Of a stretch of DNA of 64,000 bases, positions 7,157-45,478 are shown one piece after another (within the stretch, counting starts at the first letter, position 1; each line of letters begins with the position of its first letter). The position numbers were made by a program, and so were the translations under genes. The notes below the pieces were generated by a model, which did no database searches, had not been told where the DNA came from, and was given only the letters and a program-made list of their open reading frames with translations. The stretch is from Candidatus Lustribacter sp. GTDB taxonomy: Bacteria > Vulcanimicrobiota > Vulcanimicrobiia > Vulcanimicrobiales > Vulcanimicrobiaceae. The stretch is taken from positions 2,368,001-2,432,000 of the forward strand of contig OZ255842.1 of NCBI GenBank assembly GCA_965277805.1. Direction: 5' to 3'.

Positions 7157-8371
7157 CTACTGCGAGTTACTGGGTTTGGAGACGGCTACGAAGTCCTTGC
7201 GCGCTTGATCCCACTTGGCGATCAACGTCGCGTTGAGGCCCAGGCCGCGTTGCGAGCCGTCGCGGAAATCATACACGCCGTTGATGCCGATGAAACTGTG
7301 GAGCTTCGTAATATAGCCGCGCGCATCGTCCGCAGTGCCGTTGGGGCCGATGTGCCGCAGCGCATCGACGAGGATCATCGCCGGACCCCAGACTTGCGCG
7401 TACGAGAGGTCGGCACGGATGCCGCGCGCAGCCAGCGCTTTCTGATAGACGACCTGCGCGTCATGGATCGGCCCGGCGCCGGCACCGTTGGTCACGAGCG
7501 AGCGCATCGCGGGGAAGTACAGTTGCGAGGGCAGCGAGGACGCGAACTGATTCATCTGCGCATAGGTCATGTTACCGCTGCCGGCCAGAATCGGCAGATC
7601 GAAGCCGGCGTCGCGCATGCTACGCAGCACCGTGCCGAGCGGCGTTCCGACGGTCCAGGCGATCACCGCTTGCGGATTCGAAGCGCGGATCTTGGCCAAC
7701 TGACCCGACACCGCGATGTCGCTGACGCTGAACGACTCACGGTCGACGAGCTTGAGGCTTTGGTTCTTCGGCAGCGCGAAGGCCCGGTCGAAGGCGCGAT
7801 CCATCGTTTGACCCGCGGCATCCTGCGTGCTCAGCATTGCGATACGCGTCCAGCCCTGTTCGCGGAAGTAGCGCAGCGATGCGACGGCCTGATCGAACGA
7901 GCTGACGTCGGCAACGAATCCGAAGCCGTTGGCCGCCGGCTCGAAAATCGGCGCGATGCAATACATGACCGGCCCCTTTTTCAAGAGCGGATAGACGGCG
8001 TTACAGCCGGCGATGATTTCCGGCCCCAGCATGACCGGAGCGTTAGCGGCGATCAGTTTGCTCGCGAGCTGTACGCTCACTTGCGGGTTGGACTGATCGT
8101 CGGAGACGGTGAAGGCAACCGGCCTGCCGTTAATGCCGCCCTCCTTGTTCACGACGCCTTCGAGCGCTTCGAGCGCCTTCGCGTTGGCTTGGCCCAGAAA
8201 CGCGAGGTACCCCGTCATCGAGAGGACGACCGGAATCTCAACCGGCGCGCCGCTAACGGCCGGTGCCGCCGAAAGCCGAACGGCAGACGCGGGGCCCAAC
8301 GTTGCCGCGAGCAGCGCGGCGATGAAAACACATCGGACAAAACGGTTGATCATGAGCGGGTTCCTCGTCAT
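7157..8371 (-). CDS. ABC substrate-binding protein, LivJ/PBP1 type (aromatic-ligand-like)
   Basis: Signal peptide; GGINGRPV..DDQSNP; GINGVYDF. Alternative start at 8353. Confidence 0.88.
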   Translation of the reverse strand: MTRNPLMINRFVRCVFIAALLAATLGPASAVRLSAAPAVSGAPVEIPVVLSMTGYLAFLGQANAKALEALEGVVNKEGGINGRPVAFTVSDDQSNPQVSVQLASKLIAANAPVMLGPEIIAGCNAVYPLLKKGPVMYCIAPIFEPAANGFGFVADVSSFDQAVASLRYFREQGWTRIAMLSTQDAAGQTMDRAFDRAFALPKNQSLKLVDRESFSVSDIAVSGQLAKIRASNPQAVIAWTVGTPLGTVLRSMRDAGFDLPILAGSGNMTYAQMNQFASSLPSQLYFPAMRSLVTNGAGAGPIHDAQVVYQKALAARGIRADLSYAQVWGPAMILVDALRHIGPNGTADDARGYITKLHSFIGINGVYDFRDGSQRGLGLNATLIAKWDQARKDFVAVSKPSNSQ

Positions 8372-8455
8372 TACTATTCAGTTACTGTATCGTTAAGTAT
8401 CTAATCTATTACGGTACGCCAAGACGGGGCGCGCTTGCGCGCGACCTCGGGGTGT

Positions 8456-9574
8456 TCAGACGGTCAGGGTCTGGACCGTGTGCTCGCCGAGCTGCGGCGG
8501 CGGATTGGCGGGCGTGATGCGCGCGCCGTCCACGTGTAGCGGCGAGTGTACCATCGTGAGCGATTCGCCCCCGGTACCCGTTACCGTGAACATCGTCGAC
8601 AAGGCCTGAACTTGGGGATCGTTCATCGCATCGACGATGTCGTTGACGGCCGCGTTGGGAACGTCGGCTGCATCGAGCAGATCCACCCATGCGGCAAGCG
8701 GGCGCTGGATAAAGTACGCGGCCAGCAAACGGTTGAGTTCGGCATAATTCGTCAGGCGGTCCATTCGGGTTGCGAAGCGGAGATCGCTCGCGAGCTCGTT
8801 CGCTTCGATGGCCTTCGTCATCGCGATCCAAAATTTTTCGAGCGACGAGAGGTGGATCGCGATCATGCCGCCGTCGGCACACCGGAAGACGAAGGACTGC
8901 GAGGATGCTGCACGCGATTGCGGCGTGGGCCGCACGTTCAGCTGCGTGGCGAGCGAAAACGCGTCGGGAACGAACGCCATCGACGATTCCAGCATGTTGA
9001 TTTCGAGCCGCCGGCCCGTGCCGGTGCGTTCGCGTTCGTAGAGTGCGCCGAGGATGCCGAGAGCAGCGTACATGCCGGTGACGTTATCGGAGATCGTCGG
9101 TCCGACCACGCGCGGGTCCGCTGGGTCAAAGAACAGGCTGCCGAGCCCGCTGATCGCTTGCGCGACCGCATCGAACGCAGGGCGGTCGCGCTTTGGGCCG
9201 ACGGCGCCGAATCCCGTAATCGAACAATGGATGAGGCGCGGAAAGCGCGCGCGCAGGGCTTCCGGTGCGAGGCCCAACCGCGGGAGAACGCTCGGGCGCA
9301 AGTTGTCGATCAGCACGTCGGCATCGGCGAGCAATGATTCCAGCGACTCGCGGCCGGTTTCGGCAGAAAGATCGATGACGACGCTGCGCTTGTTGCGGTT
9401 GTAGGCGATGAACTGCGGGCTGTACGAACCGCCGCGAAACGCCCGGAACGGATCGCCCTCAGGCCGCTCCACTTTGACGACGTCCGCGCCGAAATCAGCC
9501 AGCAGCATCGCGGCAAGGGGCGCCGTGATGGTGGTCCCGATCTCAATGATGCGTACGCCGGAAAGCAAACTCAT
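8456..9574 (-). CDS. Class III CoA-transferase (CaiB/BaiF)
   Basis: LADFGADVVKVERPEGDPFR, NRNKRSVVIDL, PAFD catalytic Asp region, PPQLGEHT. Confidence 0.92.
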   Translation of the reverse strand: MSLLSGVRIIEIGTTITAPLAAMLLADFGADVVKVERPEGDPFRAFRGGSYSPQFIAYNRNKRSVVIDLSAETGRESLESLLADADVLIDNLRPSVLPRLGLAPEALRARFPRLIHCSITGFGAVGPKRDRPAFDAVAQAISGLGSLFFDPADPRVVGPTISDNVTGMYAALGILGALYERERTGTGRRLEINMLESSMAFVPDAFSLATQLNVRPTPQSRAASSQSFVFRCADGGMIAIHLSSLEKFWIAMTKAIEANELASDLRFATRMDRLTNYAELNRLLAAYFIQRPLAAWVDLLDAADVPNAAVNDIVDAMNDPQVQALSTMFTVTGTGGESLTMVHSPLHVDGARITPANPPPQLGEHTVQTLTV

Positions 9575-35202: not shown

Positions 35203-36261
35203 GTGAAAGCCGTGATCTTCGAGCGCTTCGGTGGACCCGAGGTGATGGAATACCGCGACGTGCCGACGCCCGAAGTCGGCCCCGGCGACGTGCTCGTCGA
35301 GGTGCATGCGGTCACCGTCAATCGCGCGCTCGACATTCACGTGCGCGAGTCCGGCGACGGGCGCAATCCCGTGCTGCCGCTCGTCCTCGGCGTCGATCCC
35401 GTCGGCGTGATCGTCAAGGCCGGTGCGAACGTTCCGCAGTCACGCATCGGCGAACGCGTTGCTGTAGCCTCATCGGTGCGCTGCGGAAAATGCGGCGCGT
35501 GCCTCGACGGCCGCGGACCCGATTGCGTCGCCACGCAGCATCTCGGCATTCACCGCTGGGGCGGCTACGCCGAATACCTCAGCATCCCCGCCGATGCGAC
35601 GATGCCGATTCCGGACAACATGAATTTCCCCGAGGCGGCCGTCGTGTTCCGCCACTTTCCCACCGCCTTTCATCTGCTCGACTGCAAAGCCGGCATCAAA
35701 GCCGGCGAAACCGTGTTGATCATGGGCGCGGCGGGCGGCCTGGGCAATGCCGGGATTCAAGTTGCGAAGTATCGCGGCGCGCGCGTGATCGCGGGCGCCG
35801 GCACCGATGCGGGCGTTGCGCTCGCGCGCGAAACGGGCGCCGACGAAGCGGTCAATTACCGCACCGAAAACCTCGAAGCGCGCGTCAACGAACTCACCGG
35901 CGCTAAGGGCGTCGACGTCGTGTTCGAAAATATCGGCGCACCGGATCTGTGGCCGGCAGCCTTCAACTCGCTCGGCGGCGGGGGACGGCTCGTGACCGCG
36001 GGCGCGCATGGCGGCGGCACGGTGACGCTCGACGTGAAGCGGCTTTATCGCCGCAAACTGCGCTTGATCGGCGGTGCGGGCTCCGATCCGTGGGACGTCG
36101 AGGCAACGATCGAGGGCGCGGCGAGCGGCAAACTGCACGGTGCGATCGACCGCATCTTGCCGCTCTCGGAAGTCGCGGAAGCGCATCGGCTCGTCAGCGA
36201 GCGTGAAGTCACCGGTAAAGTCGTGCTGATCCCCGAGCGCGTGCTCGCGCTAACGAACTAG
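35203..36261 (+). CDS. Zinc-binding dehydrogenase/quinone oxidoreductase (MDR family)
   Basis: GTG start MKAVIFERFGGPEV; CGKCGAC..C structural Zn site; GAAGGLG; GKVVL. Confidence 0.9.
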   Translation: MKAVIFERFGGPEVMEYRDVPTPEVGPGDVLVEVHAVTVNRALDIHVRESGDGRNPVLPLVLGVDPVGVIVKAGANVPQSRIGERVAVASSVRCGKCGACLDGRGPDCVATQHLGIHRWGGYAEYLSIPADATMPIPDNMNFPEAAVVFRHFPTAFHLLDCKAGIKAGETVLIMGAAGGLGNAGIQVAKYRGARVIAGAGTDAGVALARETGADEAVNYRTENLEARVNELTGAKGVDVVFENIGAPDLWPAAFNSLGGGGRLVTAGAHGGGTVTLDVKRLYRRKLRLIGGAGSDPWDVEATIEGAASGKLHGAIDRILPLSEVAEAHRLVSEREVTGKVVLIPERVLALTN

Positions 36262-36834
36262 ACGATCGCCCGGCTCCGGCGGCGGCTCGGGCGGCGCAGG
36301 CACCGTCGGCATCTCGTGATTGGCGTAGAGCGCTATGCGTTCGATGCGCCCATTGTTACCGCTGATGATCGCGATGCCGTGCTGCCAACGCGCTTGATAC
36401 GCGTGCTGGTAGACGATCGAACGCGCCCCGCCTTCGCGGCCGGCCTGCGAGATGAAGTACTCCGGCAACGACGTGATCACGTTGCCGATGCCGATGCTGC
36501 CCGGTTCCACTTTGAAGATACCGTTCGCCGGCGGCGTGTCGCGCGGTAAGTTTTCGGTCTTCGCAAGGTAGTGCTCGATGCCGATCAGCACTTGGCCGCG
36601 ATAGATCGCCGAGAGCACCCAACGCTGGTTGTGCAAACCGGCCGCGGCCCACGTGCGCCAGCCCGGCGCCGGATACTCGATCGCGGGGCCCATGCGGCGT
36701 TCGATCGCGCGGCGCGTGGTGAAGCCCGGCACGAAACTCAAGAGCCCGCTCTCGAGCGTCATCGGCGGTGCCGGCGCCGGTTTCGCGGGGGCGGCCGGAG
36801 GCTTCTTCTTATTTCCGAACAGGCCGGCGAACAT
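36250..36834 (-). CDS. Hypothetical protein
   Basis: Plausible globular composition with Pro-rich ends; no family recognised. Confidence 0.6.
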   Translation of the reverse strand: MFAGLFGNKKKPPAAPAKPAPAPPMTLESGLLSFVPGFTTRRAIERRMGPAIEYPAPGWRTWAAAGLHNQRWVLSAIYRGQVLIGIEHYLAKTENLPRDTPPANGIFKVEPGSIGIGNVITSLPEYFISQAGREGGARSIVYQHAYQARWQHGIAIISGNNGRIERIALYANHEMPTVPAPPEPPPEPGDRLVR

Positions 36835-36881
36835 CGGCCAAAACTTCTCGCCCGCGGCAACGAAGGCCGCTTTTCGCCCCG

Positions 36882-37310
36882 TCAGTCGAGCGCGATGCGC
36901 GCCAAAAGCGCCATTAAGTGATCGCGCTCCGCAGGCGCGAGCGGCGCGAGCGTTTCGGTTTGCGCGCGCGCGCTGAGCTCCGCAATTTCGCCGGCCTGGC
37001 GCTCCCCGCCGGCCGAGAGACGCACGCGCAGCTGACGCTGATCGGTCGGATGCGGCTCAACCACGATCAAGTCTTGTTTTTTGAGGCGTGCGACCAGGCC
37101 GTGCACGTTCGCCGGTTCCATGCCGATCGCGCGGCCGAGTTCGGCTTGCGAGAGCGGGCCGCGGGCGTGCAAGGTCATCACCGTTGCCGCCTGCATCGGC
37201 GTGATGCCGACGTCCTTGAGCAGATGGCTGGTGTTGTTCTTAGCGCGGTAGTAGGCGCGGCGGAGCAGATGGCCGACACGGTGCTCCGCTTCGTAGTCGA
37301 ATTCGTCCAG
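36882..37310 (-). CDS. MarR family regulator (probable CTG start)
   Basis: Open frame CTG-DEFDYEAEHRVGHLLRRAYY..ITPMQ..LSQAELGRAIGMEPANV..DQRQ; first ATG is only at 37196. Confidence 0.8.
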   Translation of the reverse strand: MDEFDYEAEHRVGHLLRRAYYRAKNNTSHLLKDVGITPMQAATVMTLHARGPLSQAELGRAIGMEPANVHGLVARLKKQDLIVVEPHPTDQRQLRVRLSAGGERQAGEIAELSARAQTETLAPLAPAERDHLMALLARIALD

Positions 37311-37315
37311 AGCGG

Positions 37316-38197
37316 CTAGCGTGCCAGAGCGACGGCTTCTTCGAAGCGGCCCGCGCCGATCTTATCGGCGTCAAAGATGCCGCGCTCTGCCACCCACGAG
37401 TGGGTGTCTTCATACATCGTCTTCGAGTACGGTTCGAAGATCAGCCGCTCGCCGGGACCGAAGCGGCGCACGTCGACCAGCGGACGGAAGCGTTCCTGCA
37501 ACTCGTTCTGATAGTAGTGCACGTACTTCTGATGCCGCACGTCGATGTCGGCCTGCGCGCGGCGCAGCGCGGCGTAGTATTTCTTCACGTCGTCGAGGTC
37601 GGCGTCTTTCGCGACCATGCCGGCGATCATGAACGTCGTGTCGGTGATGACGCGGAAGCCGAGCTGCTCGAGGATGTAACGCTGCATGCCGAACACGTTC
37701 GCAGCCTTTGCTTCGCGCGCGATCATCGCGTCGACGCGCTCGTCGGGCAAACCGCCGAAGCGCAGTTTGATCGCATCGGCCGGCAGATATTCTTCGAGCG
37801 ACTGGATCGTCGCGTAGTGGCTGCCGGAATGGTAGCCGACGTAGACCTCGACGCCCGCCAGCTGCTCGGGTTTGGTGATCGCCGACTCCGGCGGCACCAT
37901 GATCGCGCCGGGCGAGATCGAGTAGCATTCGCCCCACAGCGTGCCGTGGTCGGCGGAGGCGGCCATGTTCACGGTCCAATGGCACGCGCAGCTCACGGTC
38001 GCATCGCGGCCGGTTTCGTACGACTCGTACGCGCCGTGCTTCTTGCCCTCGGCGGTCATGACGTCGGCTGGGTCGGGCTGGCCCAAATCATTTTTCTTGA
38101 GGACGTAGTCCGTCAGGCCCTCAGCCGCGTAGTAGCCCTTTTCTTCCGCGACCCATTCCTGGAGACGCCCGTGCGTGTGGATGACGAAGGTGCTCAT
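37316..38197 (-). CDS. PBP2/NMT1-fold protein lacking a signal peptide (possibly a cytoplasmic enzyme)
   Basis: WVAEEKGYYAAEGL, PEQLAGVEV, GSHYATIQ; no hydrophobic N-terminus. Confidence 0.75.
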   Translation of the reverse strand: MSTFVIHTHGRLQEWVAEEKGYYAAEGLTDYVLKKNDLGQPDPADVMTAEGKKHGAYESYETGRDATVSCACHWTVNMAASADHGTLWGECYSISPGAIMVPPESAITKPEQLAGVEVYVGYHSGSHYATIQSLEEYLPADAIKLRFGGLPDERVDAMIAREAKAANVFGMQRYILEQLGFRVITDTTFMIAGMVAKDADLDDVKKYYAALRRAQADIDVRHQKYVHYYQNELQERFRPLVDVRRFGPGERLIFEPYSKTMYEDTHSWVAERGIFDADKIGAGRFEEAVALAR

Positions 38198-38200
38198 ATC

Positions 38201-38214
38201 GTTATGATAATAAC
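38201..38214. promoter_or_regulatory. Palindromic operator overlapping a -10 box (candidate MarR site)
   Basis: GTTAT-GATA-ATAAC; on the minus strand TATCAT lies 6 nt before ATG 38197. Confidence 0.55.
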
Positions 38215-38219
38215 ATTAT

Positions 38220-38942
38220 TTAGCCGGCGTCAAGCCCCGCCCGCCCGGCCGCCGCGAGCAGGGCGGCGGTGAGTTCGGCGGGAGCGTCGAGCATCACGTC
38301 GTGGCCGCTTGGGATCGCATCGACGAACCAGCCGCCCTCGGCGGTTACCCGCGCTCGGGCTTCATCGAAGCCGGGTGAGCGGTAATTGCCGGCGCGCAAG
38401 TACGTCTTGTGCGCGCAGCGTTCGCGCGCGCCTGTGAGCGCGAGCCCTTCGGTAAACGTCTTGAGCGGCTGCGGCACGCATTGCGCATCGACATATGCGC
38501 GGTCGCGTTCGTTCACGCCGAAGCTCGCTGCCGCAATCGGCGGCAAGTAGCCCGAGTCCGCGGCGGCTTCGAATCGCGCCCGCACGGCGGCCAGTGCGTT
38601 GTCCATCATCGACTCACCGTCGCGCGGAACGAACGCATCGAGGAACACGAGCGCGGCGATGCGTTCGGGCACGGCTTCCACGACGCCGGTGATCACGTTG
38701 CCGCCGTAGGAGTGACCGCACAGCACGACGTCGTGCAAGTCTTCGAACTTCAGCACGTTGACGATGTCGGTGACGTGCGTACTGAGCGTGATGTCGGGAC
38801 TGCTGAGATGCACCCGCTCGCCGAGTCCGGTCAGCGTCGGCGTAAACACGCGGTGCCCGCGCGCCCGCAGCGCGTCGGCTACGCGCGCGTAACACCACCC
38901 GCCGTGCCACGCTCCGTGAACGAGAACGAAGGTCGTCGGCAT
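38220..38942 (-). CDS. Alpha/beta hydrolase (methylesterase-like)
   Basis: LVHGAWHGGWC, GHSYGG, SGHDVM. Confidence 0.92.
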   Translation of the reverse strand: MPTTFVLVHGAWHGGWCYARVADALRARGHRVFTPTLTGLGERVHLSSPDITLSTHVTDIVNVLKFEDLHDVVLCGHSYGGNVITGVVEAVPERIAALVFLDAFVPRDGESMMDNALAAVRARFEAAADSGYLPPIAAASFGVNERDRAYVDAQCVPQPLKTFTEGLALTGARERCAHKTYLRAGNYRSPGFDEARARVTAEGGWFVDAIPSGHDVMLDAPAELTAALLAAAGRAGLDAG

Positions 38943-38954
38943 GTGGGTCTCTCC

Positions 38955-39830
38955 TCAGCCGACCTGCGGTCCACCGAAGAACTGCATCAGAATCGGCTTG
39001 AGCGGGCGATTAGGTTTGTAATCGGCGGGCGGCGGCTGCAACGGAACGCGACGATCGCCGCGGGCGAACGGATCGTCATGAATCGGATAGTGGAATAACC
39101 ACGGAATATCGTCTTCCTCAACGTGCCCGTCGCCGTACATGTATTCGTAGTGCGTCCAATAGTAGATGGTGTTGCCGCGCCGGATTCCCTCTCCGATCAC
39201 GCTGATGATGCCGTCGCCCGGATTCATTCCCTCGTGAATGCCGTTGAACGACATCTGGAAATGTTTGGTCGTGATCGTCGGCGCCGTATCCATCGCGGCA
39301 TTGGCTTGGGCGAGCGTCTGATGCGACGACGCAATCGATTGCGCGAACTGATTGTTGAGCTGATCGAGCTGCGCTTGCGAGTAGGCCTGACGCTTGGGTT
39401 CGGGCGGCGCGGCGGCAGGCCGGACCTCGTGCGGGATCTCCGCCACGCCCTCGCCGCGCGACGGCGCGGTCTGGCGCGGCGCGTGCACCTTGATGTGCGC
39501 GAGTTCGTGGTGCTGCTCGACGGGCGCGACGATCGGCTGCGGCTCGACGCGCGGCGCAGGCGGTGGCGGCGGCGGCGGTTTCGGCGGCTGCTTGGGCTTC
39601 GGCAACACGACGGCCACCGGCCGTTGTTGCGGTTCGGCCTTTTCCAAGCGAATGATGTCGGACTTCGGCAGCTGCGGCGATTGCAGGCTTGCGAGTTGCG
39701 GCAGCGCCTTCACCACGGCGCGCGAAAGCAGACCGTACAACGAGCCACCGGCGAGGTGGACCATTAACGACAGCATGAGCCCGATGAGGAGATAGCGCCG
39801 CGTTCGCGCGCGGCCTCGCGCGCTGATCAT
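38955..39830 (-). CDS. TonB-like membrane-anchored Pro-rich protein with an unrecognised C-terminal domain
   Basis: Single N-terminal TM with SxxxH (SLMVH); PKPKQPPKPPPPPPP linker; C-terminal domain shared with 41082..42245. Confidence 0.7.
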   Translation of the reverse strand: MISARGRARTRRYLLIGLMLSLMVHLAGGSLYGLLSRAVVKALPQLASLQSPQLPKSDIIRLEKAEPQQRPVAVVLPKPKQPPKPPPPPPPAPRVEPQPIVAPVEQHHELAHIKVHAPRQTAPSRGEGVAEIPHEVRPAAAPPEPKRQAYSQAQLDQLNNQFAQSIASSHQTLAQANAAMDTAPTITTKHFQMSFNGIHEGMNPGDGIISVIGEGIRRGNTIYYWTHYEYMYGDGHVEEDDIPWLFHYPIHDDPFARGDRRVPLQPPPADYKPNRPLKPILMQFFGGPQVG

Positions 39831-39929
39831 GTCCTGGGGGATAACGTTCCTCGGACTACGGTAGTCCCATGAGATTCAACGGCCATCGTAGGGGGCCCGG
39901 CTTGGAGTCCCCTGGGCCGCGGCCCCACG

Positions 39930-39956
39930 AAAAAAGCACCCCGCGGACGGGGTGCT
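39930..39956 (-). terminator. Intrinsic terminator of rplJL
   Basis: AGCACCCCG/CGGGGTGCT stem with a U-tract on the minus strand. Confidence 0.8.
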
Positions 39957-39978
39957 CGTTCTGCTTACCAGCGATCGG

Positions 39979-40353
39979 TTACTTGATCTCGACCTTGGCG
40001 CCGGCTTCTTCGACTTTCTTCTTGATCGATTCGGCTTCGTCTTTGGTGACGCCGGTCTTGATCGCCTTGGGGGCGCTCTCGACGAACGACTTCGCTTCGG
40101 TCAGGCCGAGCGAGGTGACTTCGCGGACGGCCTTGATGACCTTGATCTTCTCGGCGCCGATTTCGCTGAGAATGACGTCGAATTCCGTCTGGGCTTCGGC
40201 CGGGCCGGCGGCCGCGGCGGCACCCGGGGCTGCCGCAACGGCAACCGGGGCAGCGGCGCTAACGCCGTATTTTTCTTCGAGGGTCTTCACCAGCTCGGAG
40301 AGCTCGAGGACCGTGAGTTTGTCGATTTGATCGATGAGTTCGGCTACTGCCAT
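39979..40353 (-). CDS. rplL: 50S ribosomal protein L7/L12
   Basis: [49 protein letters not shown]. Confidence 0.99.
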
Positions 40354-40369
40354 GTTGTTCGATTATCTC

Positions 40370-40909
40370 CTAAGCTGCTGATCCGGCGGCTTCTTTTTGC
40401 TCGCGGATCGAATTGAGGACGCGGACGAGACCGCCTTGATTGCCCGAGAGCACGGTCACCAGACCGTATAGCGGGCTCTTGAGCGACCCAACCAGGCGGC
40501 CAAGAAGCTCGATTTTCGGAGGGAGGGAGGCGAGTTGGGCTACGCCCTTGGCATCGACGATCTGGCCGTCGATGTACGCCGCCTTGATTTCGACGGGCTT
40601 GTTGGCCTCGCCGAAGGGCATTTTGAGCGCTTTCGCGGGTGCGACCGGATCGTCGCCGGCGAAAACGATGGCCGTCGGACCGGCCAGGTAGGATTCAAAT
40701 TTAGCGGCGAGATCGCTACCCGCGGCGCGCGAGAACAGGGTGTTCTTCACGACGCCATACGTGCTGACGCCGTCTTTGCGCAGCTCGTTGCGGAGTTTCG
40801 TGATGTCTCCGACGGTCAGCCCGGCGTAATTCGTGAAGAACAAGTTCTTCGACGCGCCCAGCTTCTGCCGGAGTTCTTCGATCGTCGCTTCTTTTTTCGC
40901 GGTCGGCAT
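40370..40909 (-). CDS. rplJ: 50S ribosomal protein L10
   Basis: MPTAKK.., YAGLTV..LRNELR, VVKNTL, GPTAIVF, LASLPPKIELLGRLVG. Confidence 0.97.
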   Translation of the reverse strand: MPTAKKEATIEELRQKLGASKNLFFTNYAGLTVGDITKLRNELRKDGVSTYGVVKNTLFSRAAGSDLAAKFESYLAGPTAIVFAGDDPVAPAKALKMPFGEANKPVEIKAAYIDGQIVDAKGVAQLASLPPKIELLGRLVGSLKSPLYGLVTVLSGNQGGLVRVLNSIREQKEAAGSAA

Positions 40910-40928
40910 GGTGGCTTTCTTGAGAACG

Positions 40929-41070
40929 AAAAAGCGCCTCCGCCAACCCAGGCGAGGCGCATCGAAAGCCAAATGCCCGCAGGCACTAGGAGTCTCGTTC
41001 GCATCCTCGGTAGGCGCCTAGCGCTCGCACGCTCAGCATTATCCCCTCACGGGGACCCACGGTCATTGGA
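40929..41070 (-). promoter_or_regulatory. Ribosomal protein L10 leader (autoregulatory RNA) with attenuator hairpin
   Basis: Minus strand CCAATGACCGTGGGT..ATAAT..CCTACCGAGG matches the L10-leader pattern; GCGCCTC..GAGGCGCTTTTT terminator precedes rplJ; TATGAT -10 at about 41081-41086. Confidence 0.75.
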
Positions 41071-41081
41071 GCCATTGCGTA

Positions 41082-42245
41082 TCATACCTCAGGCGGCCCC
41101 TGAGGGTCAAGTTGGCCAATTGTCATCCCGAGCAAAGCACCGAAGGTGCGTCGTCGAGGGACCGCCACAATCGCGGCCACCTGCAGCCCCGGGAAATACT
41201 CCAAGAGCAGCGGCTTGAGGGGCCGGTCGGGCTTGAACCCCTTGGGCGGCGGCTGCAGCGGTATGACCGAGTCGCCGCGAGCGAACGGGTCGTTTCCGGT
41301 CGGAAAAAAGAACGGCCAGGGAATGTCGTCTTCTTCGACGTGTCCGTCGGGATAGCGGTAGATGTAATGCACCCAATACTTCGTCACCGGACCGTCGGGC
41401 TCGTAGCTGTTGTAGGTCATCGCCCCCTGGCCGGGCGTCAGCGCATCGAGCAACCCCCGGAACCCACGTTTGCTGAACGTCGCCTCTGCCGGGTCGGACA
41501 GCAAAAACGCTTGCAGTTGCTGCGCCTCTGCCGGCGCGTTCTTGCGCGTGACGAGATCGAGCGGGATCTGCACGTTCAGACTCGCCGGCAGTAAATCCAG
41601 CCGCAGCGTTCCCGGCGCGACCGCCGCAATCGCCGTCGCAAACGAGCAGTACGTGAGAAATGCCGCCTTTCCGGACGCGAGCGTTGCGGCCGCCGCCGCC
41701 GCATCGAAGCCCGCGGCGCTATCGTGCGCTTTCGAACGCAGATCGATGCTCATGCCCGGCGCGAGACGCGCGAAGCCTTTGAGCACTTGATCGACGTAGG
41801 CGGTGACGTAACGCTCTTGCACCTGTTTGATCAACCCGATCTTCGGATCGGTGAGCACATCCAAGAACGGACGTCCTTGCGCGAGTGCGGTCGGCGTTAG
41901 CAAACACAGCGCCGTGCGCGCGACCACGTGAATGTCCCCGTATTTGCTCGTATCGCGGAGCTCGAACGCCGCCGGCAGGTCGAGCGTGACGAACAGATCC
42001 GGCGTATCGGGCATGAGCTTGCCCAGCAGCGCGGCGTTGGAGTCGTAGGTGACGTCGACCGCGATACCGGTCTGACGCGTGAACGCAGCGACGGCCTCAT
42101 CGAGCGGAGCCTTGACCAGCGCGTTGGCAAACAGGGAGACGTGATGCTGCGCCCCGCGCTGCTGCGCAACTGCGGGAGACGCGGCGAAAAAAGACAGCGC
42201 CGCCGCCACCGCAAGAGCTACGGCCGGCGACCAGCGCTGCTTCAT
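41082..42245 (-). CDS. Degenerate ModA-like periplasmic binding domain fused to an unrecognised C-terminal domain
   Basis: Signal peptide; LDEAVAAFTRQTGIAVDVTY..PDLFV; FLLSDPAEATFSKRGF (ModA C-terminus); then the shared domain. Confidence 0.75.
   Translation of the reverse strand: MKQRWSPAVALAVAAALSFFAASPAVAQQRGAQHHVSLFANALVKAPLDEAVAAFTRQTGIAVDVTYDSNAALLGKLMPDTPDLFVTLDLPAAFELRDTSKYGDIHVVARTALCLLTPTALAQGRPFLDVLTDPKIGLIKQVQERYVTAYVDQVLKGFARLAPGMSIDLRSKAHDSAAGFDAAAAAATLASGKAAFLTYCSFATAIAAVAPGTLRLDLLPASLNVQIPLDLVTRKNAPAEAQQLQAFLLSDPAEATFSKRGFRGLLDALTPGQGAMTYNSYEPDGPVTKYWVHYIYRYPDGHVEEDDIPWPFFFPTGNDPFARGDSVIPLQPPPKGFKPDRPLKPLLLEYFPGLQVAAIVAVPRRRTFGALLGMTIGQLDPQGPPEV
41121..41170 (+). repeat. REP-like element, copy 3 (inside a CDS 3' end)
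   Basis: TGTCATCCCGAGC-aaaGCACCgaaGGTGCgtc-GTCGAGGGACCGCCACAA. Confidence 0.8.
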
Positions 42246-42258
42246 GCTAGGGAGCGGG

Positions 42259-43461
42259 TTACGGACCAGTTTCGTTCGGGTCCTTGACGCCGACGTAGCG
42301 GTCGAACTCGTAGTTGCCGAGCACGCCGTTGCGACGTTCGACTTTGCGGAAGTAGACGTTCTGCACGATATCGCGCGTGGCGGGGTCGATCGAGATCGGT
42401 CCGCGCGGGCTCTCGAACTGCATGCCCTTGACGATATCCATCGTCTTGTCGGGATCGATGTGACCCTTCTGCGCGATCAGCACCTTGTACGCCGCGGCGA
42501 TCGCGTCGTAGGCCTGGACCGCTTCGAACGTCGGGAGCTGGTCGCTGCCGTACGCAGCCTTGAACGCCTTGACGAAGTCGCGATTCATCTTCGAGTCGTG
42601 CATCGCCGAGTAGTCGAACGTCGTCGTGATACCGAGCGCGGTGTCGCCCTCGGTCGGGAGGATCGCTTCGTCGACGAGATCGCCCGTCGCGAGAAACTTG
42701 ATCCCGGTGCGATCGAAGCCTGCCGACTTGAGCGCCTTGATGAAGTCGACGCCGCCGCCGGTCGCGTTGATGAACAGGAACATCACGTCAGGCTTCGCGT
42801 CTTTCACCTTTTGAATGTAGGCCGAGAAGTCTTTAGTGTCGACCGGCATGCGCGATTCGCCGAGCACCTTACCGCCCGCAGCGGTGAACGTTTTCTCGAA
42901 GGCCGTGCCGGCGTCGATGCCCGGACCGTAGTCCTGGAACACCGCGTACGCCGTTTTGGCGTGCTGGAAGTTGAAGGCCCACTTCGCGAACGGCACGGAA
43001 ATCTGCCCGGTCGTAAAGCCGAAGCGCGCGGTATAGGGGTTGGTCTTGAAGATGTTCGACGTCGCCGCGTTGACGATGAAGTACGGCACCTTCGCTTGAG
43101 TCGAGACTTTGCCCATTGCGATCGCGTTGGGCGTATACGATGCGCCGATCAGCAAGTCCACGTGTTCTTGCACGATCAGTTCTTGCGCGAGCCGCGCCGC
43201 CACGTCGGGGGCGATGCCCGTGTCGTCGCGCTTGATCAGCACGACCTTGCGCCCGGCGATCGTATCGCCGTGCTGCTTCATGTAGGCATCGAACGCCGCG
43301 TTCGCCATCTTCCCGAGCGTGACGTTGTCACCACCCGAGTAGGACAGCACGACGCCGATCTTGATCGGGTCTTTGGTTTGCGCGAGCGCCGGCACGGACG
43401 CCGTCACCAGGACGACGGCCAGCAACGCTAATAGGGAACGTTGAATAGAGCGAATGATCAA
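42259..43461 (-). CDS. ABC substrate-binding protein, PBP1 (aromatic acid-binding type)
   Basis: TTG start with GAGGAG RBS; IKRDDTG..PDVAARLAQEL; ESPRGPISIDPATRDIVQNVY. Confidence 0.9.
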   Translation of the reverse strand: MIIRSIQRSLLALLAVVLVTASVPALAQTKDPIKIGVVLSYSGGDNVTLGKMANAAFDAYMKQHGDTIAGRKVVLIKRDDTGIAPDVAARLAQELIVQEHVDLLIGASYTPNAIAMGKVSTQAKVPYFIVNAATSNIFKTNPYTARFGFTTGQISVPFAKWAFNFQHAKTAYAVFQDYGPGIDAGTAFEKTFTAAGGKVLGESRMPVDTKDFSAYIQKVKDAKPDVMFLFINATGGGVDFIKALKSAGFDRTGIKFLATGDLVDEAILPTEGDTALGITTTFDYSAMHDSKMNRDFVKAFKAAYGSDQLPTFEAVQAYDAIAAAYKVLIAQKGHIDPDKTMDIVKGMQFESPRGPISIDPATRDIVQNVYFRKVERRNGVLGNYEFDRYVGVKDPNETGP

Positions 43462-43534
43462 AGCACGTCTCCTCGGAAAATAACTTTCAGTCGATACCGA
43501 TGAGAACGCGAACATTCCTCCGAACGTTAGCACC

Positions 43535-44194
43535 GTGACCTCGGGCTTCATCGCGACGGCTTTTGCCACGGCGTTCACGATCATCGACCCGGTCGGAATG
43601 ATTCCGCTCGCCCTGTCGGTGACCGTCGATGCGTCCCCGCAGCGCCGCGCACAGATCGTCAATCAGGCGATCCTGGTGGCGGCCGCCGTTATTCTGCTCA
43701 TGGGACTCGTCGGGAAGCCGCTGCTCGAGTCGCTCGGCATCACCCTGCCGGCGTTCACGATCGCCGGCGGCGCGTTGCTCTTCCTTATCGCCGTCGACAT
43801 GCTCTTCGGACGCAAGCCGGGCACGAAGCAGACCCCGGAAGAGGAGCGCGTGGACGCCGACAGCGCCAACCCGGCGGTCTTTCCGCTGGCCGTCCCGATG
43901 ATCGCCGGACCCGGCACGATTGCGACCGTCCTCGTCTTGGTGACGCTGGCCGGCGGCGACCGCGAAAAAGACGCGATCGTCTTTGCCGCGTTCGCCAGCG
44001 CCATGGTCGTCACGTGGATCTGCATGCGCCTATCCACCCAACTGCTCCGCGTCATCGGCACCACCGGCATCCATGTCGTCACGCGCCTCTTCGGCATCCT
44101 GCTCTCCGCCCTCGCCGTCCAATTCATCCTAAACGGCCTATCCCAAACCCCCCTCCTCCACACCGTCACTGTCACCCCGAGCGGAGTGCCGTAA
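43535..44194 (+). CDS. marC: MarC family membrane protein
   Basis: IIDPVG, FTIAGG, VFPLAVPMIAGPGTI, TRLFGILLSALAVQFI. Confidence 0.92.
   Translation: MTSGFIATAFATAFTIIDPVGMIPLALSVTVDASPQRRAQIVNQAILVAAAVILLMGLVGKPLLESLGITLPAFTIAGGALLFLIAVDMLFGRKPGTKQTPEEERVDADSANPAVFPLAVPMIAGPGTIATVLVLVTLAGGDREKDAIVFAAFASAMVVTWICMRLSTQLLRVIGTTGIHVVTRLFGILLSALAVQFILNGLSQTPLLHTVTVTPSGVP
44170..44182 (+). repeat. Partial REP-like element in the marC 3' end
   Basis: TGTCACCCCGAGC. Confidence 0.45.
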
Positions 44195-44206
44195 CCCACA
44201 TTGGGG

Positions 44207-45478
44207 CTAGGTGAAGCCGTTCCAGCAGGCGTCGTAGTCGGACTGCATCGCGGGTGTTGCGAGAGCGAATGCCGTGGGCGCAAGCACGTAGCACGTTTCA
44301 AACATGAACGCGAGGCCGTCTTTGATGTAACGCGGCTTCAGTTCGGCCGCAACGGCTTGCTCGTAGGCGGCGAGGTCGGGGCCATGCGCCGACATGCAAT
44401 TGTGCAAGCTCGCCCCGCCCGGCACGAAGCCGCCCGATTTCGCCTCGTACGCGCCGTCGATCAGGCCCATGTATTCGTTCATCACGTTGCGATGAAACCA
44501 CGGCGGCCGGAACGTGTGCTCGGCAACGGCCCAGCGCGGCGGAAAGATCACGAAGTCGAGGTTCGCCGTGCCTGGTGTCGTCGACGGAGACGTGAGCACG
44601 GTGAAGATCGACGGATCGGGATGATCGAAGCTCACGCTGTTGATCGTGTTGAAGCGCGCCAGGTCGTATTTATAGGGAACGTAGTTGCCGTGCCAAGCGA
44701 CCACGTCGAACGGCGAGCGGTCGAGTTGCGTTGACCACAGCCCGCCCATGAACTTTTGCACGATCTCGGTCGGCTCGGCGTCCTCGAACGCGGGAACCGG
44801 GGTGAGGAAGTCGCGCGCGTTCGCGAGGCCGTTCGAACCGATCGGTCCGAGTTCGGGCAGCCGCAGCAGCGCGCCGTAGTTTTCGCACACGTAGCCGCGC
44901 GCCGTTGCGTCGAGCAACTCCACCCGGAAACGCAGGCCGCGCGGAATCACCGTGATCTCGCCCGGCGCAACGGTCAGCCGGCCGAGCTCCGTCACGATCA
45001 GCAGCGCGCCTTGCTGCGGAACGAACAACAGCTCACCGTCGGAGTTGAAGAACGCGCGCCCGCGCATCGAGCGATTCGCAACGTAGATGTGGATCGCAAT
45101 CCCGGCGCGCAATCCCACGTCGCCGTTTCCGGCCATCGTGTGCAGCCCATCGATGAAGTCCTGGGGCTCTGCGGGGACCGGTAACGGGTCCCAGCGCAGC
45201 CGGTTCGGCGACGGCGCAATCTCGGCGAACGGTCCGCTGCGAATCGCTTTCGCATCGATGCGCGCGTAGGCGCGATGATCGGCCGAGGGCCGCTTGCGGT
45301 ACATCCAGGTGCGCCGGTTTTCCGCGCGCGGGGCCGTGAACGGGGTGCCGGAGATGATCTCGGCGATCAGGCCGTGCGGAACGTGCTGCGGCGAGTTTTG
45401 GCCGACGGGCAGCGCGCCGGCAACCGCTTCGCCGGCGAACTCGTTGCCGAAACCGCCGGCGTAGGTGAGCTGCTCCAC
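44207..45478 (-). CDS. hmgA: Homogentisate 1,2-dioxygenase
   Basis: [60 protein letters not shown] start 45478. Confidence 0.96.

Follow-up and report, generated by a model that had tools for sequence, protein, structure and literature searches.

A TonB/TolA-type protein with a previously undescribed C-terminal domain and its genomic tie to SBP_bac_11 binding proteins in Candidatus Lustribacter and related Baltobacteraceae

Two genes around rplJL and the domain common to them

The stretch of DNA analysed here, called the window, comprises 64,000 nucleotides of Candidatus Lustribacter sp. (contig OZ255842.1, positions 2,368,001 to 2,432,000) and belongs to a genome of 5.53 Mb, designated G000 and placed in genus g1, which is a single contig with an estimated completeness of 95%. 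Two minus-strand genes of the window, P0001 and P0002, are the subject of this report. P0001 encodes a protein that is of the TonB/TolA type at its N-terminal end and falls in neither the TonB_C nor the TolA family at its C-terminal end, where it carries a domain of about 100 residues that is, by sequence, previously undescribed. In P0002 a second copy of this domain is fused to a predicted secreted substrate-binding protein (SBP) of the family SBP_bac_11. TonB and TolA are the two textbook routes by which the energy of the inner membrane is brought to the outer membrane of diderm bacteria, and the C-terminal domain sets what is energised.

The positions of both genes, of their parts and of the features lying between them are collected in Table 1. 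The two copies of the domain aligned with 50 identities over 97 positions (52%; BLASTP, E 4e-32), and the remaining segments of the two proteins gave E ≥ 1.7, the likeness being confined to the C-terminal domain. Judged from this alignment, it is far beyond chance. The first-pass annotation of the window had described two minus-strand open reading frames (ORFs) ending in closely similar domains, the first with a transmembrane (TM) helix carrying SxxxH, a Pro/Lys linker and a separate C-terminal domain, as in TonB and TolA, and the second with a ModA-like fold. The ORFs, the shared domain and the layout of P0001 were all found as described. For P0002 the fold stood and the identity with ModA did not: its N-terminal part covers model positions 3-227 of the 227 of PF13531 with 54.7 bits against a cut-off of 25, whereas the best of the NCBIfam ModA equivalogs gave 51.1 bits against a cut-off of 288. 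The neighbours of P0002 in the window are rplJ and a Peripla_BP_6 gene, not modBC.

Table 1. Coordinates of P0001, P0002, their parts and the intervening features in the window (pLDDT, predicted local distance difference test)
Feature	Position	Strand	Residues and description	Basis
P0001	38955..39830	minus	291 amino acids; predicted bitopic inner-membrane protein of TonB/TolA-type layout with the new C-terminal domain	ORF, translation, AlphaFold2
Transmembrane anchor of P0001	39705..39812	minus	residues 7-42, pLDDT 92-95; S21-x3-H25 at 39756-39770; S36 is the fourth SHLS position	
D-box-like motif (by position and pattern)	39630..39662	minus	residues 57-67, alternating hydrophobic and charged, ending in Pro; between anchor and poly-Pro tract	
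Pro-rich linker, predicted disordered	39381..39632	minus	residues ~67-150; no secondary structure, pLDDT 57-73	AlphaFold2
Single 31-residue helix	39285..39377	minus	residues 152-182, ahead of the domain; F162 and I166 invariant	
New C-terminal domain, copy 1	38958..39248	minus	residues 195-291; three long antiparallel strands, Pro-rich extended tail, short helix	
P0002	41082..42245	minus	387 amino acids; predicted secreted SBP_bac_11 protein fused to the second domain copy	ORF, Pfam
Signal-peptide-like N-terminus of P0002	42165-42245	minus	residues 1-27	by eye
SBP_bac_11 (ModA/WtpA-type periplasmic binding fold)	41457..42134	minus	P0002 residues 38-263	PF13531, E 1.5e-14
New domain, copy 2	41175..41462	minus	P0002 residues 262-357	BLASTP
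30-residue tail of P0002	41085-41174	minus	after the domain; not conserved	
rplL	39979-40353	minus	between P0001 and P0002, outside the feature under study	Pfam Ribosomal_L12 / Ribosomal_L12_N
rplJ	40370-40909	minus	between P0001 and P0002, outside the feature under study	Pfam Ribosomal_L10
Terminator-like hairpin	39934..39957	minus	10 pairs, 7 of them G-C, and a T run; between rplL and P0001	consensus scan only
Two promoter-like sites	41038..41110	minus	upstream of rplJ, at the 3' end of P0002; 10/12 and 9/12 matches	consensus scan only

Anchor, linker and C-terminal domain of P0001

A Pfam scan of P0001 gave no family at E ≤ 1, and two far-sub-threshold NCBIfam matches fell on the Pro-rich part of the protein. 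Among its 92 homolog clusters at E ≤ 1e-3, 91 are without a Pfam domain, the exception (P0094) being a match of 11% coverage, and where the source gives the homologs a name it is 'hypothetical protein'. The full-length AlphaFold2 model, built from a 75-sequence alignment, consists of the N-terminal anchor helix, an unstructured Pro-rich region (residues 43-151), a second helix and a beta-rich C-terminal domain.

The single N-terminal TM helix contains the Ser-x3-His of the TonB family, whose conservation had been named as a check on the proposed layout and proved to be high. All 24 of the close homologs compared carry both S21 and H25, and the two residues are kept at 90% or more in the 75-sequence alignment. 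A census of the motif was made on the 120 full-length proteins (at least 230 residues) among 150 listed of the 312 representative clusters matching the domain profile. Among these listed matches 94 have SxxxH, 16 have SxxxN, three have [ATGC]xxx[HN] and seven have neither; Sxxx[HN] is thus present, in a hydrophobic stretch, in 110 of the 120, and is kept over a wide divergence, down to about 25% identity. The ten listed rows without S-x3-[HN] make up the last two classes; by eye, three of them start no more than two residues from a His, which fits truncated N-termini, and another pattern is common to five. P0132, P0162, P0170, P0187 and P0253 form a subgroup of full-length members whose TM helix lacks Ser-x3-His/Asn and has a different conserved pattern, with Pro, Thr and Trp at intervals; here the contact with a motor may have been lost or changed. 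In three proteins of about 470 residues (P0140, P0142 and P0146) the SxxxH helix is preceded by an additional part of about 210 residues, without Pfam match and predicted cytoplasmic; TonB has nothing of the kind, and the additional part may point to cytoplasmic regulation.

In PMC12215075 the SHLS motif is given as Ser-x3-His-x6-Leu-x3-Ser, and Ser16/His20 of TonB and Ser18/His22 of TolA are reported to contact ExbB and TolQ, respectively, in cryo-electron microscopy structures from E. coli. The four corresponding positions of P0001 are S21, H25, Y32 (Tyr at the Leu position) and S36. According to bioRxiv 10.1101/2022.09.26.509584, exchange of His20 for Asn in E. coli TonB leaves it fully functional. 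The N-terminal 80 residues of P0001 were also compared by BLAST with the canonical TonB of the same genome, and 12 of 25 residues over the helix were identical (E 4e-5).

Directly after the anchor, the motif at residues 57-67 has a nearly invariant I60 and an invariant E63 in the 24 homologs, and the family consensus derived from the 75 sequences is SxxxRIExRxxPxP. It occupies the position of the TonB D-box, which PMC10907165 describes as a motif flanked by Pro and prone to form a strand, next to the anchor and captured by an ExbD dimer; the likeness to the D-box as described there was judged by eye. A D-box look-alike was found, also by eye, at the corresponding place of the canonical TonB of the genome. 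The linker that follows is rich in Pro and Lys, in keeping with the Pro-rich periplasmic linker of the TonB family. In its middle (39480-39510, residues ~107-117) there is a linear motif of the HELA type, with E109 invariant and H112 nearly invariant across genera, which might be a binding site.

The strands of the C-terminal domain comprise residues 207-218, 221-231 and 237-249 and its helix residues 279-285, all modelled at pLDDT 92-98. A domain-only model from 24 sequences agrees with the full-length one (pLDDT 81, predicted template modelling score 0.70). The claim that the domain matches neither a characterised Pfam family nor TonB_C holds at the level of sequence. No Pfam or NCBIfam family was found for it, its profile gave a best E of 9.7 against all PDB sequences, TonB_C (PF03544) was not detected in P0001, and alignment by hhalign with the ten TonB_C segments of the same genome gave a probability of 0.2%. 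Foldseek searches of the PDB with the domain-only and the full-length models gave no match at E ≤ 0.001, and the best score in the ESM Atlas, 0.80, was no higher than those of shuffled controls. The matches listed in the fold searches with the domain model included no TonB or TolA chain, a result that does not exclude a TonB_C-like fold. No paper on this protein family was found in literature searches combining Eremiobacterota, Baltobacteraceae or Lustribacter with TonB or ExbB, or TonB with SxxxH, C-terminal domain and molybdate.

In most copies from other genera, SBP-linked ones included, the domain ends with two Cys and two His in the consensus CYxHRxxxCPIxH. This ending was seen at the C-terminal ends of L024:6322-7119 (minus) and of the genes at loci L017, L020, L029, L030, L019, L028 and L032, and is missing from P0001 and P0002 of Lustribacter; it could be a disulfide or a metal site.

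Taxonomic range, Ton machinery and gene neighbourhood

At E ≤ 0.001 the domain profile matched 312 clusters out of 1.84 billion representatives, 249 of them at E ≤ 1e-10; with few exceptions these are proteins of 250-330 residues that carry the domain at the C-terminal end. In the family Baltobacteraceae, a soil lineage of the Eremiobacterota, it was found in 76 of 81 genomes (72 of 77 when four unpublished genomes are left aside), in 52 of the 54 of high quality and in 73 of 78 genera, at one to three copies per genome. A phylum-wide survey recovered it in 43 of the 44 genomes of family f1, gave one weak match (E 4e-5) in the sole genome of f2, and found none in the 75 genomes of 19 other families. 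The domain is therefore specific to a lineage, as had been supposed.

A third and much more divergent member is present in the Lustribacter genome outside the window (G000:C1:3527947-3528765, plus strand; E 1.4e-5 to the profile). It has 272 residues, a TM helix without SxxxH, a Pro-rich and then Gly-rich linker, and two Cys bracketing its version of the domain; the same class occurs at L026:1061-1930. Many genomes of the family have such a second class of weak score, with open frames of about 290-300 residues. In P0249 (240 residues) the domain stands in mid-protein and is preceded by a segment resembling CarboxypepD_reg (28.9 bits, below the cut-off of 32.3); this ORF may be mis-called or chimeric. 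The orthologue of P0001 in genome G003 (L033:7785-8658) has a frameshift or an assembly error, its match being split between two frames, at 7785-8399 and, with overlap, at 8227-8658.

A canonical exbB-exbD-exbD-tonB cluster lies at G000:C1:2818179-2820484, with exbB-exbD-exbD at 2818939-2820484 and tonB at 2818179-2818937. The TonB encoded there has 252 residues, an SxxxH helix, a Pro-rich linker and a TonB_C domain (E 1.6e-9). The whole genome contains ten TonB_C matches, 13 barrels of TonB-dependent receptors over the cut-off, three MotA_ExbB matches and two ExbD matches; the two other MotA_ExbB genes stand beside ORFs of flagellar and MotB type, assigned by reading the translations. TolB_N gave no match at E ≤ 0.1 in this 95%-complete genome. 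Taken together, the cluster, the counts and the TolB_N result indicate a canonical Ton system with an apparently single motor and no recognised Tol-Pal. The idea that the new domain replaces TonB in this lineage is thus not supported, since the genome keeps its motor, its TonB, its TonB_C domains and its receptors. ExbD was found in 78 of the 81 family genomes and in all 54 of high quality, usually as two tandem copies. Nearly every family genome has exactly two tandem ExbD matches, that is, one exbB-exbD-exbD motor, and many clients appear to share it, as judged from the ten TonB_C matches here.

The domain is tied to SBP_bac_11 proteins in two ways, of which the first is operonic. Among an initial set of 19 loci, three have genes of one and the same cluster immediately upstream of the domain gene and on its strand; a member of this cluster, L016:4688-5590, matches SBP_bac_11 (E 1.1e-25). 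By tblastn, L017 and L032 also proved to have the same type of SBP directly upstream, and the Ca. Velthaea locus L043 to have it about 1.1 kb downstream. Homologs of these SBPs, which match PF13531, are named 'substrate-binding domain-containing protein' at NCBI and 'molybdate/tungstate transport system substrate-binding protein' at JGI. The profile of the operonic SBP was matched in 64 of the 81 family genomes, and in 20 of the 61 genomes holding both genes (18 of 58 without the unpublished ones) the match lay within 3 kb of a domain match; this figure is descriptive only, since the profile was built from adjacent copies and the genomes are kin. In all 21 pairs the SBP is upstream on the same strand. 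The gap between the matched parts is 438-683 bases (1298 for a tandem second copy), a distance taken up by the N-terminal half of the domain protein, and the two genes therefore abut. Prediction of a complex between the operonic SBP (24-277) and its neighbour protein (45-266) gave a score of 0.00, which carries no weight either way.

The second tie is the fusion seen in P0002. Fourteen homolog clusters have its architecture of SBP_bac_11 plus domain, and all 14 show higher conservation in the domain than in the SBP part (94% and 79% in one case, 64% and 47% in another), while the tail varies. The tie of the domain to a ModA-like protein is real at the level of the genes, and wider than the fusion from which it was drawn. 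P0002 was found only in part of genus g1 (G000, G003, G004 and locus L034); in G005 livK and rplJ have nothing between them. In a tree of 24 domain sequences, one branch (support 89/99) divides g1 from the 17 copies that come from other genera, and the P0002 copy is on its g1 side. The branch leading to P0002 is some nine-fold longer than that of P0001 (0.72 against 0.08), and the exact placement of P0002 is weakly supported (71/55). It follows from the restriction to part of g1 and the side of the tree that the fusion arose recently within the lineage, by duplication of the domain and its attachment to an SBP. The nearest paralogue of the SBP part in the genome, at about 388.9-389.8 kb, has 31% identity. 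The SBP part was also considered as an orthologue of the operonic SBP, and this was rejected (BLASTP E 0.12; no match of the operonic profile at E ≤ 0.01). No match to the operonic SBP at E ≤ 1e-20 was obtained in genus g1 in the profile survey, and together with the failure of the profile to find P0002 this indicates that the fused SBP comes from another subfamily.

The position around rplJL, which the first-pass annotation had taken as part of the system, turned out to be genus-level synteny and not a functional linkage. P0001 is found downstream of rplL within genus g1 only, the hairpin separates the two genes and rplJ has promoter-like sites ahead of it. Elsewhere, in the other genera, the domain gene has gatCAB, an RNA methyltransferase gene, dnaE or metG as its recurring neighbours. 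A recurring 'upstream ORF' in three loci (cluster c13) had no Pfam match and a composition like that of an out-of-frame artefact, and was dropped. In genus g1, rplJ-rplL (39979-40972 of the window) stand apart from their usual rplKA and rpoBC neighbours, and in the window they are flanked by the Peripla_BP_6 gene, P0002 and P0001. An Rfam scan of 36000-45000 gave no family, and no L10-leader RNA was found upstream of rplJ. A minus-strand ORF of 293 residues at 37316-38197, without Pfam match or signal peptide, lies at or near P0001 throughout the genus; it follows P0001 directly in G005, and an alpha/beta hydrolase gene stands in between in the Lustribacter genome. Contigs of RNA libraries from four runs cover rplJL and, except for one short contig, leave P0001 and P0002 uncovered, a lack of cover that proves nothing. 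This contig, of 238 bases and from run X16, matches 39099-39326 within the domain part of P0001 and differs there in 14 letters; it shows only that the sequence of a relative was present in the RNA library.

Interpretation and meaning for the family

Compared with TonB of the E. coli type, P0001 has the same bitopic topology with the N-terminus inside, Ser-x3-His in its single TM helix, a short motif beyond the membrane that by eye looks prone to form a strand, a Pro-rich linker spanning the periplasm and a small globular domain at the C-terminus, and the anchor is of the same type as that of the canonical TonB of this genome. It differs in the C-terminal domain, which has neither sequence nor profile similarity to TonB_C, and in the 31-residue helix ahead of it; genes of the P0001 type are not beside exbBD and are linked to an SBP_bac_11 gene instead. 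The reading we prefer, at a probability of about 0.45, is that P0001 is an extra transducer which draws on the one ExbBD motor in common with TonB and has a periplasmic binding protein as its partner. P0001 would then be a lineage-specific paralogue-by-architecture of TonB in the inner membrane, its SxxxH helix docking on the one ExbB-ExbD-ExbD proton motor of the genome, probably with help from the strand-like motif just outside the membrane. The Pro-rich linker would carry the beta-rich domain across the periplasm, where the domain may work with the SBP_bac_11 protein of molybdate/tungstate type; the repeated genomic tie suggests that the output has to do with such a periplasmic binding protein. 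The binding protein could be held or placed by the domain, or the domain could bind a partner common to both, and a ligand of oxyanion type would in this way be handed on at the envelope. In a subclade of Ca. Lustribacter the second copy of the domain, fused onto an SBP, would have given a soluble protein with the same docking module.

Several observations weigh against this reading. Over 44 loci (426 kb with overlaps), tblastn at E ≤ 1e-3 detected no exbB, exbD or tonB next to a domain gene, so that coupling to the motor is argued from the motifs. The S/H motif is not obligatory, as seen from the seven of 120 full-length representatives among the matches listed that lack S/H-type residues and from the visible subgroup with another pattern. 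The D-box resemblance was judged by eye, and the BLAST alignment with the TonB of the genome does not include that motif. Adjacency to the SBP is confined to 20 of 61 genomes, which are related lineages and not independent events, and the profile favours adjacent copies. The operonic and the fused links involve two different subfamilies and may be unrelated. Finally, the recurring neighbours scanned are housekeeping genes, and no gene for an ABC permease, an ABC ATPase or a TonB-dependent receptor was identified among them.

These points bear on other readings as well. If no ExbBD energy is used, P0001 could be a passive tether or scaffold that keeps a binding protein, or some other client, at the inner membrane, like the lipid anchors of binding proteins elsewhere, with the S/H pair serving oligomerisation or another membrane partner. 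The missing linkage to exbBD, the members without S/H, the divergent third class of paralogue and the predicted cytoplasmic N-terminal part of some members, unlike TonB, would all fit. We nevertheless hold it unlikely: Ser-x3-His/Asn is kept in 110 of 120 members among the matches listed, the TM region resembles that of the TonB of the same genome, a strand-like motif is conserved at the D-box position, and a long Pro-rich spacer would be needless for a tether close to the inner membrane. It is similarly doubtful that P0001 is a TolA-like tether for envelope integrity, which would link the inner membrane, the wall and the outer membrane on the single ExbBD motor in a lineage with no recognisable Tol-Pal, the domain binding a component of the outer membrane or wall and the SBP being an incidental or secondary client. 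P0001 has in common with TolA an anchor of the SHLS type, which according to PMC12215075 docks on a 5:2 motor, a periplasm-spanning middle and a small C-terminal domain. The absence of TolB_N, the one ExbB-type channel with two ExbD, the housekeeping neighbours (gatCAB, dnaE, metG) and the near-universal presence in the family at one to three copies, as expected of a housekeeping part of the envelope, speak in the same direction. Against it, the features that define the TolA family (domains II and III and the tolQRA-tolB-pal locus) were not found: P0001 has one 31-residue helix in place of the long helical domain II and no Pfam TolA match, and neither a tolQR-tolB-pal context nor an ExbB/TolQ-type gene was seen beside a domain gene. 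The domain was moreover not found in the 75 genomes of 19 sister families, which would need the same function, and its fusion to a soluble SBP, under stronger constraint than the SBP part, would be left unexplained.

The core idea of the first-pass annotation was that of an alternative TonB for a subset of TonB-dependent receptors, whose Ton boxes or other periplasmic elements the domain would bind by strand addition, with P0002 competing for the same receptor or handing substrate over to it. The 13 receptor barrels, a modelled three-stranded sheet that could in principle accept an extra strand, and a module common to two proteins are in keeping with it; no receptor gene was identified among the recurring neighbours scanned, and the ten TonB_C domains already present, to which the new domain has no profile similarity (hhalign 0.2%), make it quite unlikely. 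More speculative still, and in our view very unlikely, is that the domain is a new fold and a dedicated docking module between a tether driven by the proton motive force and a soluble SBP. The tether, coupled to ExbBD, would load, unload or drag the SBP_bac_11 protein or P0002 at the outer membrane to capture an oxyanion, in an 'energised binding-protein' pathway of the Baltobacteraceae.

For an extra transducer working with a binding protein there is a partial parallel, as TonB is reported in PMC3813593, with citation of Carter 2006 and James 2009, to interact with the binding proteins FhuD and BtuF. The idea of a motor-coupled periplasmic tether contacting a binding protein is the same. There, a canonical TonB and class III binding proteins are involved, with no operon or fusion, whereas the present link is a genomic one, through operon and fusion, to a fold of the ModA/WtpA type. 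P0002 and the operonic SBPs resemble binding proteins of that type in their match to PF13531. P0002 differs in lying far below the ModA equivalog cut-offs and in its extra C-terminal domain, and no ABC permease or ATPase gene was identified among the neighbours scanned.

The energised mode of action on a binding protein, if true, would be a use of TonB-type energy outside the contact of TonB_C with a Ton box. A third, family-wide C-terminal module on the same type of anchor points to another client of ExbBD. This module, without a relative among Pfam families or PDB sequences, is genomically tied to a periplasmic binding protein, and it occurs as a small, well-modelled domain of about 100 residues in natural two-gene and fused forms, open to binding tests. 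The phylum is almost wholly uncultured, and a Pfam-less family of about 300 sequence clusters would be added to the annotation of the Eremiobacterota, where these proteins have no functional name.

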